64,000 nt of DNA from a virus. The translations under genes were made by a program, and so were the position numbers. Numbering within the stretch: position 1 is the stretch's first letter; the number at the start of each line of letters is the position of its first letter. Of this stretch, positions 27,613-60,650 are shown piece by piece. The stretch is taken from the IMG/VR virus record IMGVR_UViG_3300012971_000890; one strand, written 5' to 3'. Below the pieces are notes generated by a model, which had not been told where the DNA came from, searched no databases, and saw nothing but the letters and a program-made list of their open reading frames with translations.

Positions 27613-27683
27613 TGGGCGATGAGGGAGTTGAACCCCCGATTTATGCGTGTAAGGCATACGGTTTGCCGTTAACCTAATCGCCC
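27613..27683 (-). tRNA. tRNA-Val (anticodon UAC)
   Basis: Cloverleaf: acceptor GGGCGAT/ATCGCCC, anticodon loop CTTACAC, T-arm GGTTCAACTCC. Confidence 0.7.
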
Positions 27684-27701
27684 TCCTGGGTGTGCGACAA
27701 G

Positions 27702-27772
27702 TGGAGCGGAGGGGAATCGAACCCCTATTTTCAGCTTGCAAAGCTGACGGATTCCCGTTATCCGACCGCCCC
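27702..27772 (-). tRNA. tRNA-Ala (anticodon UGC)
   Basis: G3:U70 pair; anticodon loop TTTGCAA; T-arm GGTTCGATTCC. Confidence 0.8.
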
Positions 27773-27916
27773 TAGTTCCAGTATGTATCCAAGAAGTTCC
27801 AGAAGCCGCAGGTCAGGCAAAACCAGAACGTAAATAAATTCATCCAGAGACAATTCCGGGCTATCTGGGGCGTCTTGGGGTTAACAATCCAAGTGGACAT
27901 CCAGATGCCAACGGCG

Positions 27917-28225
27917 CTAATCAGCACCCCCAAGCAGTTCACCCACAATAACATAATCCACCCCCTCCTTGGAACAACCCTCCAACACCCGCACCTTGCC
28001 GCCTAGCGTTTCGATAAACTCCCACACGCGGTCGTAGCAGCCCTCACACATATGGCATTCGTGAGTCTGCATGTCCTTCCGAGAATGGTAGCCCCAGCGT
28101 GCGTTCAACAATGCCCACTCGTGGGCCTCATAGCGACCGTCATCCGATGCGTTGCAACTGTCTCCGCAGATGTCACACCGATAACCCACGAGCTTCGGCT
28201 CATGTACGACCTGTCTAATTTCCAT
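27917..28225 (-). CDS. cysteine/histidine-rich hypothetical protein
   Basis: CDICGDSC..HECHMCEGC. Confidence 0.4.
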   Translation of the reverse strand: MEIRQVVHEPKLVGYRCDICGDSCNASDDGRYEAHEWALLNARWGYHSRKDMQTHECHMCEGCYDRVWEFIETLGGKVRVLEGCSKEGVDYVIVGELLGGAD

Positions 28226-28230
28226 ACATT

Positions 28231-29337
28231 TTACTCCTTTGCACGATTCCCTTCAACCTCGGCTATCGCCCCTTCCTTGACCACAATCTCGCCCTGTAAA
28301 GGAGTGTTGGTTTTCAGTATTTTGGGCACGTTGGACAGGAGTGTATGACGGTTAATTGAAGCCATGATTAACAACTCGCGCCGGAAGTGGGCGGCGTCGT
28401 CGTGAGTCAGGAATGTGTTCACCATGTCATACAGACAGTGGTAGTCGAGATACCAGTAGTCCAGCGACCATTCTTCCTTGCCAATCGACTCCATGTAAAC
28501 CCGGTTCTTGTCGTGATGGGTGATGTCCACGAACGGCACCCCGGAGATCGTGCTGAAGATCGCGGCATGAAGCCGGGTGGTGATGGCCACGTCGCAGGCG
28601 GACATTACGTCCAGGGTATCCTGCACGCCCAGCCGGTCATAGACCACCAGATTCTTCTTGTACCACTTACAACGTCCTCCCGCCCAGGAGTTGGCCATCC
28701 GGTCGTCGCTATGCTGGTCGCCGCCGAAGGGCAGGAATATGAAACTGGCCGACGTGTTGTCGGCGCACCGCGCGATGTCGAAACACACCTTTTGAAAAGT
28801 CAGGAAGTCGCGGGCCAGGAGGTCGCTGCCCACCGCCAGGAAGCTGTTCAGGACCACCGCCACCGTATGCTCATAAAGCTCGCCGCCAAGCTGCCGGTAC
28901 ATCTTCCTCAGCAGTTCCTTGCCCCTTTGTTTATTGGGCCGGAGGGTGAAGGCGAAGTCAGGCATGTAGCTCACTTCGATGCCCCGGTTCTGGAGCAGGT
29001 CAAAGGACATATAATCCCGCACGCAGATGTGCTGAAACTGGTTAAAACTGTCGAGCAGGTGAAGGTGGGGCCGGCGCTTGTCGTCGTGGGCGGGGATGCC
29101 CACCGAAAGCAACAACTTGGGCACCTGAACCTTGTCGAGTTGGTCGAAGAAGCTTTTGTCGATGACGTTGCCGCCACCCATGATGAGGTAGTCGGAGGAT
29201 GGGGACTTTTTTACGTCGTCGGTGAAGTGAAAATCGCAGTCAGGGAATAAGGTCGAAAAACTTAACTTATATGACTCGTCCCCGATGTTGCCCTTGCCGT
29301 ACCAGCCGAGTACCGTGATCTTCTGCCTGTTCCCCAT
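28231..29337 (-). CDS. polysaccharide pyruvyl transferase family protein
   Basis: ITVLGWYGKGNIGDE N-terminal motif and overall size (368 aa) typical of CsaB/WcaK-like pyruvyl transferases. Confidence 0.65.
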   Translation of the reverse strand: MGNRQKITVLGWYGKGNIGDESYKLSFSTLFPDCDFHFTDDVKKSPSSDYLIMGGGNVIDKSFFDQLDKVQVPKLLLSVGIPAHDDKRRPHLHLLDSFNQFQHICVRDYMSFDLLQNRGIEVSYMPDFAFTLRPNKQRGKELLRKMYRQLGGELYEHTVAVVLNSFLAVGSDLLARDFLTFQKVCFDIARCADNTSASFIFLPFGGDQHSDDRMANSWAGGRCKWYKKNLVVYDRLGVQDTLDVMSACDVAITTRLHAAIFSTISGVPFVDITHHDKNRVYMESIGKEEWSLDYWYLDYHCLYDMVNTFLTHDDAAHFRRELLIMASINRHTLLSNVPKILKTNTPLQGEIVVKEGAIAEVEGNRAKE

Positions 29338-29400
29338 ATGCTATGTACGGTCGTCGCTGGAAAAACGACCGGGGGCCTTGTTAGGCCCCCGGTCGTTTGC

Positions 29401-30156
29401 TTACTTCTTGGCCTTCTTGGCGAGTTCGCGTTCGGCCTCCTCCCAGAACTGCCGGCCATCCCCAGGCGGACGGCCCGCCTCTTCCCACTTGTAGTAGGCG
29501 AGTTCCCGGATTTTGTCCTCCGCGATCTGCCCCTGGGTGCCCTGCGGAGCGGACGCAGTAGCATCGTTGTGATTGGTACGCGCCATGTCCTTCTTTCCTT
29601 TCCAGGCGTTCATCGCCTTGCACAAGAGACTGAACACACTCCCCACGCCTATACGTTCCTCTGCTTGCCAATTTGGAGATATTATAAACTCCTCAATGGC
29701 AAACAGCAAACGATGCAGTATCCGATCCTGGCCCAGCAAAAGGAGGGCGTCGTACATATCCATGCCATGCTCCCTGCCGGTGATGGCAACGCGGAGCGTC
29801 TGCATGAACAGCACAAATTTCACCCCCAGGTTGGCGGCGGCTTCGCGGAAGCGCACATCCAGCGCAGATTTGACCCGAACTCGGTCGTCCTCATTATCGC
29901 ACCAGGCAGGGAAGGGTACTTCCTCGACTATCGTACCAACCATAACCAAAATATCAAGGTCAATTGGGAATTGACGCAGGTATTTGGCGACGGGCGCTGG
30001 TTCGTAATCGCGGAAGGTCCAGTCGTCCTCCTTGGCGAATTCGACATAGGCCAGGGCATCGCTCAGAACCTTCATGCGGTCGCCCAGCGATTTAACTACT
30101 AGCGCCAGCCTTCTTCTTGCTTCCGCCGGACTTGTTGCTGTTGGCATGTTCCTCAT
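29401..30156 (-). CDS. hypothetical protein with C-terminal DUF2934-like motif
   Basis: C-terminus ELAYYKWEEAGRPPGDGRQFWEEAEREL; RBS AGGTGGG. Confidence 0.5.
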   Translation of the reverse strand: MRNMPTATSPAEARRRLALVVKSLGDRMKVLSDALAYVEFAKEDDWTFRDYEPAPVAKYLRQFPIDLDILVMVGTIVEEVPFPAWCDNEDDRVRVKSALDVRFREAAANLGVKFVLFMQTLRVAITGREHGMDMYDALLLLGQDRILHRLLFAIEEFIISPNWQAEERIGVGSVFSLLCKAMNAWKGKKDMARTNHNDATASAPQGTQGQIAEDKIRELAYYKWEEAGRPPGDGRQFWEEAERELAKKAKK

Positions 30157-59385: not shown

Positions 59386-59659
59386 AATGCGCTTTCAATT
59401 CCTTCTCGGCAGCTTTCCAGAACTCGATGTCCCGGCCTTTGGGGCACCCCGCCTGCTGCCATTTTTGTTTTGCAAGTCTTGCAATTTCGTCCTGAGTCGG
59501 CTCGCGGTGATTCCCATTCCCCCAGATCAGCCAGTGGCCGAAGACCAGGAGGTTCACCGCCGCCAGGGCCAGCATGGTAATCGCCATGCCAGGCTCCTGC
59601 CGCCTCCATTCGTACACGGCCAGCACCAACAGCGCCAGCCCGATCCATCCGTAGATCAT
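59384..59659 (-). CDS. membrane protein with C-terminal DUF2934-like motif
   Basis: Two TM helices then DEIARLAKQKWQQAGCPKGRDIEFWKAAEKEL. Confidence 0.5.
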   Translation of the reverse strand: MIYGWIGLALLVLAVYEWRRQEPGMAITMLALAAVNLLVFGHWLIWGNGNHREPTQDEIARLAKQKWQQAGCPKGRDIEFWKAAEKELKAH

Positions 59660-59703
59660 ACAGCCTATTTACCATCGTACCGAGAAAAACGCCGGTTGTA
59701 AAG

Positions 59704-60186
59704 TCAATACGACCGTCTGCGCCCAGCGAAAGTGTCCGTCTGCGAATTGCAAGCCGGGCAGAGGAGCCGCAAATTCTCCCGCCTGTTGTCGTCCCGCACG
59801 CCGTTGATGTGGTCGAGGATCATCACCAGGGGCTTTCCGTTCCAAACCGGGGGCTGACCGCATTCTGAACATTCGTTCTTGAGCAGGCCCTCTCTGATAA
59901 GCCGCTTCTTGAGCCTGCCCCGATCAGTCCTCGAACCCTCAACCAGCAACTCCTCCAACGGTCTGTTCAGCCTACCCCCACGGCGATTGTTTTTGTTACT
60001 TCCCCTGCCCAGGCGAATATGACTGTAATCAATATCCAGGCGATCCAGGTGCTTTTTCAGTGTGTTGCAATTGCCGCCTATATGATTCAGGCCAAAGGCT
60101 TTTAATACTTGAGCAAGGGACGAGGCGGAAGCTACAAGCGTTTTTAACTCCTCCTCGGTGATCCTGCAAATACGGCTTTGTCTCAT
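59704..60186 (-). CDS. HNH homing endonuclease
   Basis: CSECG..LVMILDHINGVRDDNRRENLRLLCPACNS. Confidence 0.7.
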   Translation of the reverse strand: MRQSRICRITEEELKTLVASASSLAQVLKAFGLNHIGGNCNTLKKHLDRLDIDYSHIRLGRGSNKNNRRGGRLNRPLEELLVEGSRTDRGRLKKRLIREGLLKNECSECGQPPVWNGKPLVMILDHINGVRDDNRRENLRLLCPACNSQTDTFAGRRRSY

Positions 60187-60231
60187 ACCATATTATATGG
60201 TAGCACAAACCATATCTGCAAGAAAGTGCAA

Positions 60232-60303
60232 CTGCCCGGCTAGGACTCGAACCTAGACTACCGGCTCCAAAGGCCGGGGTGACTACCATTACACCACCGG
60301 GCA
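60232..60303 (-). tRNA. tRNA-Gln (anticodon UUG)
   Basis: U1:A72, G73; anticodon loop CTTTGGA; T-arm GGTTCGAGTCC. Confidence 0.8.
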
Positions 60304-60305
60304 AA

Positions 60306-60572
60306 TCACCAGACCGGAATGCCCTCCGCGTTCAGTTGCAGAAACTCATGCGGGTCCACAGGCTCGACCCCGCCCAGGAGGCCACCCGAATATAATACCT
60401 CACCCCGTTCCTCGTGGCAACTTTCAAACCACCAGTCGTCGGAGTCCTCGAACACCTTGGTGACCCGGACGACCTTTTTATAACCACGCGGGTGGCAGGC
60501 CCCGACCAGGCGGACATATTCGCCCTCGCGGGGAATATAATCGTTCTGCGGGTTCCAGGTGGTGAAGTGTTT
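60306..60572 (-). CDS. hypothetical protein
   Basis: Internal ATG MKHFTTW chosen to avoid the tRNA. Confidence 0.4.
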   Translation of the reverse strand, partial: KHFTTWNPQNDYIPREGEYVRLVGACHPRGYKKVVRVTKVFEDSDDWWFESCHEERGEVLYSGGLLGGVEPVDPHEFLQLNAEGIPVW

Positions 60573-60578
60573 CATAAG

Positions 60579-60650
60579 CTGCCGGGGGAGGAGTCGAACC
60601 TCCATTTGCTGGTTCAGAGCCAGCCGTCCTACCAGTTAGACGACCCGGCA
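60579..60650 (-). tRNA. tRNA-Gln (anticodon CUG)
   Basis: U1:A72, G73; anticodon loop CTCTGAA; T-arm GGTTCGACTCC. Confidence 0.75.

Follow-up and report, generated by a model that had tools for sequence, protein, structure and literature searches.

The DNA considered here is a stretch of 64,000 nucleotides (nt) from the virus record IMGVR_UViG_3300012971_000890 of IMG/VR, all of which is referred to below as the window, and its subject is a set of transfer RNA (tRNA) genes. In our view there is somewhat more than an even chance (a probability of about 0.55) that these genes form the sparsely populated end of a region of tRNA and translation genes that extends over about 59 kb in a huge soil phage, and that they provide a general supply of tRNAs for translation, not a top-up for GC-rich codons. 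The GC-rich interpretation comes from a first-pass annotation, which described the repertoire as biased in that direction and drew attention to its three tRNA-Ala and two tRNA-Gln isoacceptors.

The tRNA genes of the window were called with ARAGORN, and Rfam RF00005 (gathering score 29) was then used as a second test. ARAGORN finds 13 genes, every one of them on the minus strand and spanning 26778-60650, and Rfam backs 12 of the 13, with scores of 51-71 bits against the gathering score of 29 (E ≤ 4e-8):

26778..26850, minus strand: doubtful Ile(UAU)-like cloverleaf (ARAGORN only)
27612..27683, minus strand: tRNA-Val(UAC), copy 1 (ARAGORN; Rfam 66.7 bits)
27701..27772, minus strand: tRNA-Ala(UGC), with G3:U70 and A73 (ARAGORN; Rfam 64.7 bits)
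40238..40311, minus strand: tRNA-Gly(GCC) (ARAGORN; Rfam 70.6 bits)
41679..41750, minus strand: tRNA-Thr(UGU) (ARAGORN; Rfam 56.7 bits)
50291..50362, minus strand: tRNA-Ala(GGC), with G3:U70 (ARAGORN; Rfam 56.4 bits)
51251..51322, minus strand: tRNA-Ala(CGC), with G3:U70 and the T-loop UGCAACU (G55) (ARAGORN; Rfam 51.4 bits)
55460..55532, minus strand: tRNA-Arg(CCU) (ARAGORN; Rfam 59.1 bits)
57122..57194, minus strand: tRNA-Arg(UCU), with AG in the D-loop (A18) and G55 (ARAGORN; Rfam 53.1 bits)
59075..59149, minus strand: tRNA-Glu(CUC), with C55 in the T-loop (ARAGORN; Rfam 58.9 bits)
59164..59236, minus strand: tRNA-Val(UAC), copy 2, with AG in the D-loop (A18) and G55 (ARAGORN; Rfam 55.3 bits)
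60231..60304, minus strand: tRNA-Gln(UUG), with U1:A72 and G73 (ARAGORN; Rfam 59.7 bits)
60578..60650, minus strand: tRNA-Gln(CUG) (ARAGORN; Rfam 62.3 bits)

All ten tRNAs named by the first-pass annotation are real according to both programs and carry the anticodons it gave them: Ala(UGC, GGC, CGC), Gln(UUG, CUG), Val(UAC), Gly(GCC), Thr(UGU), Arg(CCU) and Glu(CUC). The limits that it set, 27613 and 60650, coincide with tRNA ends. Its list was thus nearly right, the omissions being Arg(UCU), the second Val(UAC) and the Ile(UAU)-like cloverleaf. The fold of this last element is a perfect cloverleaf (-29.3 kcal/mol), and its T-loop is canonical, but it was not accepted as a firm tRNA because Rfam fails to match it even at E ≤ 1; an open reading frame (ORF) for an HNH endonuclease on the opposite strand covers 40 nt at its 3′ end. 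Read directly, all three tRNA-Ala genes have the G3:U70 pair that had been attributed to them, together with A73, and CCA is not encoded by any of the window genes. The Ala(CGC) and Ala(UGC) genes are 80% identical, while the two copies of Val(UAC) share only 57%. The tRNA genes are oriented in the same direction as their neighbours, and mostly have at least one flanking ORF just 1-18 nt away; for Arg(CCU), the gaps to the flanking ORFs on the same strand are 1 nt and 9 nt. The Gly(GCC) gene was found too in contigs from other samples (L001-L003). No further RNA genes were seen in the window at E ≤ 0.5, except for two matches at chance level.

The window contains only part of the tRNA set. It can be extended to the right by three contigs, L006, L013 and L014, with overlaps that are 99.9-100% identical, and these contribute another 5, 9 and about 25 tRNAs, respectively. 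The whole region of about 59 kb thereby comes to 46 full-length tRNAs supported by Rfam and 6 called by ARAGORN only, making 52. Within the extension, Gly(UCC, CCC), Lys(UUU), Pro(CGG, UGG, GGG), Met, Trp and Thr(CGU, GGU) are joined by an Asn(GUU) that has an insertion of 21 nt, by another copy of Gly(GCC) and by a firm Ile(UAU). His, Asp and a second Pro trio lie in a dense cluster, there are additional Asn and a second Gln pair, and the extension also carries Glu(UUC, CUC), Lys(UUU, CUU), Arg(GCG, ACG), Val(GAC, CAC), Ile(GAU) and a second Ala(GGC). No isoacceptor is lacking for Ala, Gly, Pro, Thr, Val and Gln, and the finding of three isoacceptors for Ala and two for Gln is no more than a consequence of these families being complete. 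As far as it is known, the set covers every codon of 15 amino acids with the exception of Arg CGG, which amounts to 76% of the codons of the phage, and the first anticodon bases across the set are G (17), U (16), C (16) and A (1). Numerous anticodons are present as two diverged copies that are 57-82% identical, and this argues against simple codon compensation. There are tRNA genes within about 240 nt of the start of L014, so the region may go on.

It is worth adding that some of the tRNAs outside the window are odd. The insertion in tRNA-Asn(GUU) (L006 4489-4583, which is L013 67-161, at about window coordinate 67,300) forms a hairpin, was placed between positions 32 and 33 in the anticodon loop and is identical in two samples; at 21 nt it is below the size of group I introns, and it lies off the usual archaeal position. 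A tRNA of 94 nt is likewise present in LR756511.1, an uncultured huge phage. Four others are at L014 5032-5114, 1438-1509 and 4413-4485 and at L013 6867-6949: among these there are two with long variable arms, yet with Lys(CUU) or Trp(CCA) anticodons, one with a 6-nt anticodon loop (GCUAAA), and one with an 8-nt loop containing CAUA. Fragments of tRNAs and degenerate tRNA-like sequences also occur in the region.

For the analysis of codon usage, 108 genes were called with a self-trained codon model, and codons were counted in the best 75 of them (15.8 thousand codons). The fraction of these codons with G or C in third position (GC3) is 0.75. For the Watson-Crick cognate codons of the window tRNAs it is 46%, as against 75% in the phage genes, and the cognate codons have a mean relative synonymous codon usage (RSCU) of 0.85 in the case of the window and of 1.17 when the whole set is taken. 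The repertoire is therefore not biased towards GC-rich codons. The 13 window anticodons start with U in seven cases, C in four and G in two, and those that start with U match the A-ending codons, which are the rarest in the phage; the cognates include GTA (RSCU 0.36), ACA (0.33), AGA (0.24), GCA (0.37) and ATA (0.33). The bias that had been perceived arises because the window shows just part of the tRNA region. Recoding of stop codons was also considered and was rejected, since all three stop codons are used and the coding density under the standard code is 0.87.

The tRNA genes keep company with a series of genes for other parts of the translation machinery. These include the AspRS, GluRS-like and SerRS genes recognised by the first-pass annotation, which Pfam and NCBIfam confirm, all three being trimmed:

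19420..20064, minus strand: RF1-like release factor lacking domain 1 (Pfam PCRF and RF-1; NCBIfam prfA positions 127-341 of 347)
22653..23273, minus strand: peptidyl-tRNA hydrolase of the PTH2 type (Pfam PF01981, E=9.9e-21)
29401..30156, minus strand: free-standing GluRS-type anticodon-binding domain (Anticodon_2) fused to DUF2934 (PF19269, E=3.7e-13; PF11154)
34740..35567, minus strand: SerRS class II core lacking the N-terminal tRNA-binding arm (Pfam tRNA-synt_2b)
44495..45982, minus strand: AspRS of bacterial type lacking the GAD insertion, 495 amino acids (aa) (Pfam tRNA-synt_2 and OB fold)
45979..47019, minus strand: GluRS catalytic core lacking the anticodon-binding domain, 346 aa (gltX_bact 344, cut-off 290)
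48650..49243, minus strand: homologue of ribosome recycling factor (RRF) (Pfam RRF, E=1.3e-21; NCBIfam frr 73.9 bits)
63884..64000, minus strand: 3′ end of an AlaRS catalytic fragment (308 aa when whole), continuing at L006 7080-8006 (Pfam tRNA-synt_2c)

AspRS scores 535 with NCBIfam NF001750 (cut-off 443), matched in two stretches, and has an identical protein in the database (P0001). GluRS chains from the PDB align with the GluRS core only up to about residue 363 of about 490. The possibility that this core is a GluQRS (YadB) acting on tRNA-Asp was discarded, since TIGR03838 gives 178 against a cut-off of 277 whereas gltX_bact is passed. The gene for the free-standing anticodon-binding domain, called in the same way in L009, is 16 kb away from that of the core. 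The SerRS core covers positions 147-400 of 418 in NCBIfam serS and scores 255 against a cut-off of 302; a relative (L012) carries a full-length SerRS. For the AlaRS fragment, NCBIfam alaS is matched over positions 10-238 of 847 with 94.8 bits. The fragment straddles the right end of the window, where L006 is 99.9% identical to it, and this places the three tRNA-Ala genes near a phage AlaRS-like gene. The RF1-like factor has the GGQ motif, and its tripeptide of PxT type is PPT. Peptidyl-tRNA hydrolases of the PTH2 type are typical of archaea and eukaryotes. A further gene, at 13287-14186 (minus strand), encodes a member of the RlaP nucleotidyltransferases, a family with links to RNA repair pathways; neither an RNA ligase nor an RtcB partner for it was seen in the window.

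The breadth of the tRNA set, its duplication and its company of termination, recycling and hydrolase genes all fit general support of translation. We propose that the tRNAs would be transcribed inside phage operons, as the same-strand neighbours 1-18 nt away suggest, and would be excised by host RNase P and a 3′-end-processing nuclease. CCA is not encoded in any of the genes and must therefore be supplied by a CCA-adding enzyme. Charging would then be carried out by host enzymes or by the trimmed Ala, Asp, Glu and Ser synthetase cores of the phage, and the charged tRNAs, together with the RF1-like factor, RRF and PTH2, could sustain phage translation during a long infection, largely apart from the host tRNA pool. 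HNH homing endonuclease genes would have inserted beside the tRNAs, one of them now being in decay. As many as 67 tRNAs and 15 synthetases, along with RF1/2 and RRF, are known from huge phages, for which translation support has been proposed (PMC7162821), and a role for phage tRNAs has been proposed in late infection, as host components decay (PMC11025619). The corresponding complement is present here, with 46-52 tRNAs, synthetase genes for Ala, Asp, Glu and Ser, an RF1-like factor, RRF and PTH2. With regard to size, for which huge phages are those above 200 kb, the contigs listed with identical proteins reach 151 kb, and those of relatives 614 kb and 595 kb.

Proteins identical to those of the window occur on metagenome contigs from tropical forest soil, the longest among those listed being 151 kb; the source metagenomes are JGI 3300005764, 3300004633 and 3300027874 and ENA ERZ27264556, ERZ27275469 and ERZ27257192. 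The element is phage-like, as the first-pass annotation had assumed: it matches PHROG families, and has four tandem paralogues of about 340 aa (5933-12829, plus strand) that start with M(S/A)LRF(V/M)DGFDHY, the first three letters differing between copies, and that match phrog_2448. Homologues of these paralogues are found in 141 phage records, and the best full-length match of the family is in the 595-kb LR756511.1, which has three copies with 36% identity. The paralogues are followed by a 759-aa protein with two Laminin_G_3 domains, and all of these are probably tail-fibre or receptor-binding proteins. Relatives also include a 614-kb contig that carries an AspRS 60% identical to that of the window, a MetRS-like gene and a nucleotidyltransferase of the CCA-adding type. 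A megablast search with 20 kb against the INPHARED phages gave no match, and scans of IMG/VR were likewise negative, whether the query was AspRS, a vault-like protein or a DNA pattern taken at the far end of L013. This vault-like protein (30536-33445, minus strand, 969 aa) has the shoulder and repeat domains of the major vault protein, which is unexpected in a phage, and matches vault proteins of solved structure over residues 579-884 (E=2.5e-16). A 72-aa ORF (47731-47949, minus strand) has a match to the Gp23 family (T4 major capsid protein) that is limited to the initial 45 residues of the family; the ORF is conserved in the same position in a related phage with an AspRS that is 78% identical. 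Compared with an assembly from a different sample, the window shows one sizeable difference only, an indel of 12 nt at 57460-57466, in the repeat PKTLPKTLP of the ORF 57228-57557.

The only clue to the host comes from one gene:

47210..47536, minus strand: ClpS adaptor (Pfam ClpS)

Among species-representative genomes, this ClpS has 42 relatives with 52-76% identity, nearly all in Planctomycetota and mostly in Gemmataceae; to many of the proteins from Gemmataceae and other Planctomycetota its identity is 60-74%. The best of these loci (L018) is flanked by bacterial genes, and none of the relatives' loci contains tRNAs. The host is thus probably a Gemmataceae planctomycete, to judge from this sequence similarity. 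Two other genes were rejected as guides to the host: the named relatives of RmlC are at most 40% identical and taxonomically mixed, and those of AspRS are mostly Patescibacteria, which was attributed to the short, GAD-less form of the enzyme.

It is striking that the tRNAs of this phage include a structural variant of the elbow, where the D-loop meets the T-loop. In the window, the conserved elbow (G18G19 with U54-U55-C56) is kept in 9 of the 13 tRNAs, or in 8 of the 12 supported by Rfam. The others are Ala(CGC), Arg(UCU) and copy 2 of Val(UAC), which have G55, and Glu(CUC), which has C55; all four still pass on the score for the whole molecule. Over the whole region, ten of the 52 tRNAs have the T-loop sequence UGC, with G55 in place of the near-universal U55, and for eight of them there is support from Rfam as well. 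Three lie in the window (51251-51322, Ala(CGC); 57122-57194, Arg(UCU); 59164-59236, Val(UAC) copy 2) and the remaining seven outside it (L013 12694-12767; L014 1314-1385, 1726-1800, 1805-1876, 2523-2595, 3945-4017 and 4811-4881). All ten have AG at the position of the D-loop GG, and eight are without any GG, the alignment of the D-loop being ambiguous in two of the ten, Ala(CGC) and the second Ile(UAU). In comparison, the GG is retained in 37 of the 38 tRNAs with UUC in the T-loop (Fisher p=1.7e-9). The G19:C56 and U54:A58 pairs are retained in the G55 tRNAs.

The two changes together look like a compensated A18:G55 tertiary pair that has arisen repeatedly in unrelated tRNAs. The idea that the G55 tRNAs form a single lineage was rejected: identity within the group (59.9%) is equal to the background (59.7%), and their closest kin are often isoacceptors with U55. 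The variant is absent from all 51 tRNAs of two comparison phages (LR756511.1, 0 of 14; NootNoot, 0 of 37), and no report of an A18/G55 pair was found in the searchable library. An A18:G55 change would remove the substrates of TruB and TrmH, and the variant may be neutral, copied from the host or adaptive. The exchange of GG for AG along with U55 for G55 constitutes a natural experiment on a tertiary pair that is usually held invariant, and its consequences for folding, modification and resistance to cleavage are directly testable.

A possible, if unlikely, alternative to general supply is that the phage brings its own tRNAs, often as second, diverged versions that include those with G55 elbows, because they are poor substrates for host nucleases, so that translation survives cleavage of the host tRNAs. 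The duplicates speak in its favour, being just 57-82% identical and hence variants, not dosage copies. So too do the ten G55 tRNAs, eight of them with AG for the D-loop GG and at least six with a twin of the same anticodon and a canonical U55 elbow, as does the lack of G55 in the comparison phages. The RlaP nucleotidyltransferase at 13287-14186, from a family linked to RNA repair, would be in keeping with it. On the other side, neither an RNA ligase nor a Pnkp repair pair was seen in the stretches examined, and the elbow variant could be neutral. A CDI (contact-dependent inhibition) toxin that cuts the T-loop has reportedly been described in Burkholderia. The idea that tRNA nucleases are evaded has been published for other phages (PMC10264068), as has the case of Septu and tRNA-Tyr (PMC13096335). 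A further proposal, which we regard as improbable, is that the G55 tRNAs form a second, structurally marked population that evades the readers of the elbow and T-loop (TruB, TrmH and T-loop nucleases), or that is preferred by the trimmed synthetases of the phage, giving partly orthogonal decoding.

Codon compensation in its classical form, which the first-pass annotation had suggested along with evasion of host tRNA cleavage, requires that the cognate codons be commoner in the phage than in its host (Bailly-Bechet 2007). A proxy table for the host was made from the ORFs in 21 Gemmataceae ClpS loci (14.1 thousand codons, GC3 0.79). With this proxy, the mean log2(phage/host) over the whole set (30 distinct cognate codons) is 0.14, compared to 0.22 for the other codons (p=0.75 and 0.67), and other Planctomycetota used as proxy give the same outcome. 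There is thus no enrichment of cognate codons relative to the host, within the limits of the proxy, which is the result that the annotation itself had named as refuting its idea. A version in which the tRNAs serve rare A-ending and AGR codons, the GC3 of the phage being slightly below that of the host, could be drawn from the 12 distinct cognate codons of the window, where the mean is 0.34 as against 0.14 for the others. Compared with the proxy, ATA is enriched 2.6-fold in the phage, GTA 1.9-fold, AGG 1.8-fold, AGA 1.5-fold and GCA 1.4-fold, and each of these is served by a window tRNA. However, this trend, which runs opposite to the GC-rich claim, is weak and non-significant (p=0.09 and 0.07) and is gone for the whole set; TTA, CTA and CCA are equally enriched and have no window tRNA; the set also serves the commonest codons (GCC, GGC, CAG and GAG), and includes complete isoacceptor families; and the GC3 values of phage and proxy host are close (0.75 and 0.79). 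We therefore think compensation improbable.

It had also been suggested that several of the tRNAs sit immediately beside HNH endonuclease genes, in the manner of mobile insertions. Four such genes are present:

20634..21353, minus strand: HNH endonuclease, 239 aa (Pfam HNH_5 and HNH, E of about 1e-15; phrog_16726)
26278..26817, plus strand: HNH endonuclease, 179 aa (phrog_2255, E=1.9e-41; FHH...CANCH motif; no Pfam match)
56799..57166, plus strand: decaying HNH gene (frameshift near 56960 and N-terminal half absent, from three-frame translation)
59704..60186, minus strand: HNH endonuclease, 160 aa (Pfam HNH_3, 27.5 bits; phrog_10822, E=2.6e-38)

All four match HNH families of PHROG, and two of them also match HNH models in Pfam. 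Three abut or overlap a tRNA, as suggested, while that at 20634-21353 is 5.4 kb from the nearest. The gene at 59704-60186 is 44 nt downstream of tRNA-Gln(UUG). The two ORFs on the plus strand are paralogues, of which the copy at 26278-26817 is intact, and each ends inside the 3′ half of a tRNA on the minus strand after an overlap of 40-45 nt, which means that antisense tRNA sequence encodes the C-terminal tails (26778-26817 and 57122-57166). For the decaying copy, it is the last 45 nt that overlap tRNA-Arg(UCU), and its repaired protein matches the C-terminal halves only of phrog_3106 and phrog_2255. An identical frameshift is found in the independent assembly L006, which rules out an assembly error and indicates a decaying gene. 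Outside the window, an HNH-like ORF (L013 12085-12582) overlaps the start of tRNA-Thr(GGU) by 10 nt. Homing endonucleases adjoining tRNAs are documented for phage tRNA regions, SegB being an example (PMC2330249, PMC13096335).

These observations could be read as meaning that the tRNAs have accumulated through mobile elements, by gene conversion driven by homing endonucleases and by recombination during co-infection, and are mostly redundant cargo with little selected function. Three HNH genes of the window abut or overlap tRNAs, with another beside tRNA-Thr(GGU) in L013; one is decaying; tRNA fragments and degenerate tRNA-like sequences are present; and endonucleases of the SegB type co-localise with tRNAs and can amplify them (PMC13096335). 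We nevertheless give accretion little credence as the main explanation. Most of the tRNAs retain a full cloverleaf and identity elements such as G3:U70, with scores of 50-75 bits, and the linked changes of GG to AG in the D-loop and of U55 to G55 imply ongoing selection on the tRNA fold. There has been no recent duplication, copies with the same anticodon being just 57-82% identical, and for this reason recent amplification of tRNAs by endonucleases was rejected. A contig without one of the HNH genes was not found among those recovered, which are all from near-identical strains.

Several points count against a general supply of tRNAs in a huge phage of planctomycetes. Genes for tRNAs of Cys, Phe, Leu, Ser and Tyr were not found in the window together with L006, L013 and L014, so that the set may be incomplete. 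Some of the odd tRNAs (those with 6-nt and 8-nt anticodon loops, that with the 21-nt insertion, and the calls made by ARAGORN only) may be non-functional. The host assignment rests on the single gene ClpS, and the proxy codon table combines short pieces from 21 metagenome-assembled genomes whose GC content is 53-71%. Evasion of host defences may act as a selective force in a way that is compatible with a supply role. Finally, no capsid, portal or terminase gene is present in the window or in the flanks examined, where the matches to PHROG are to families of unknown function, to tail-fibre-like families and to HNH only; because of this, the phage origin, although well supported, is not proven from the window alone. 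That the element is instead plasmid-like, or a cellular symbiont with a small genome and its own translation genes, is suggested by the same absence, by the mostly patescibacterial relatives of AspRS and by reports of large plasmid-like elements with translation genes (PMC7162821), and is nonetheless highly improbable given the four phrog_2448 paralogues with their homologues in 141 phage records, the large protein with tail-fibre-like PHROG matches, the four HNH genes of phage type, the many small ORFs belonging to no known family, the absence of genes for ribosomal RNA and ribosomal proteins, the truncated synthetases, and a layout like that of cultured phages such as Streptomyces phage NootNoot.

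The system is best seen as a further case of the translation complement of huge phages, a kind that is already known: huge phages with dozens of tRNAs, synthetases and termination factors have been described. The significance of the present analysis is thus mainly corrective, in that a partial window makes a near-complete tRNA set look codon-biased, and the presence of two diverged copies for many anticodons speaks against simple codon compensation. The total of 46-52 tRNAs is near the published maximum of 67, in a phage whose probable planctomycete host belongs to a group with few known phages.

There is a close resemblance to the huge phages of Al-Shayeb et al. 2020, which similarly combine many tRNAs with synthetases, a release factor and RRF; the differences here are the probable planctomycete host and the trimming of the synthetases to their cores. 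With LR756511.1 (595 kb), the phage shares the family of structural paralogues (three copies there, 36% identity), and a scan of a 50-kb stretch of LR756511.1 shows scattered tRNAs that include all three Thr isoacceptors, several Arg and Ile(UAU). However, the similarity is distant and confined to proteins, the 20-kb megablast search of INPHARED having given no nucleotide match, and the G55 elbow, which occurs in about one-fifth of the tRNAs here, is seen in 0 of 14 there. Streptomyces phage NootNoot (Samistivirus) has about 40 tRNAs over about 27 kb among small ORFs, likewise with several isoacceptors per amino acid, such as Ile(UAU), Arg(UCU, CCU) and Ala(UGC, GGC), and its tRNA region also has an HNH gene and a nucleotidyltransferase, together with an RNase H and a tRNA-Glu that is 75% identical. 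It differs in having a genome of 131 kb, a region without synthetases, a transfer-messenger RNA (tmRNA) and an RNA ligase, and canonical elbows in 37 of 37 tRNAs.

The tRNA region of T4 and T6 is similar in that free-standing homing endonuclease genes lie among the tRNA genes, as in the case of SegB. The co-localisation of endonucleases with tRNAs is statistically documented, and SegB can amplify tRNA genes against a defence that cleaves tRNAs (PMC2330249, PMC13096335). SegB is, however, a GIY-YIG enzyme and the endonucleases here are HNH, and T4 has 8 tRNAs in one cluster compared to about 50 over about 59 kb here, with no sign of recent amplification. The cluster C1 mycobacteriophages (for example Rizal, with 36 tRNAs) also carry a large set that codon compensation does not explain, and their tRNAs have been proposed to resist host tRNA nucleases (PMC10264068). 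That proposal is based on differences in the anticodon loop relative to a known host, whereas in the present phage the conspicuous deviation concerns positions 18 and 55 of the elbow and not the anticodon loop.

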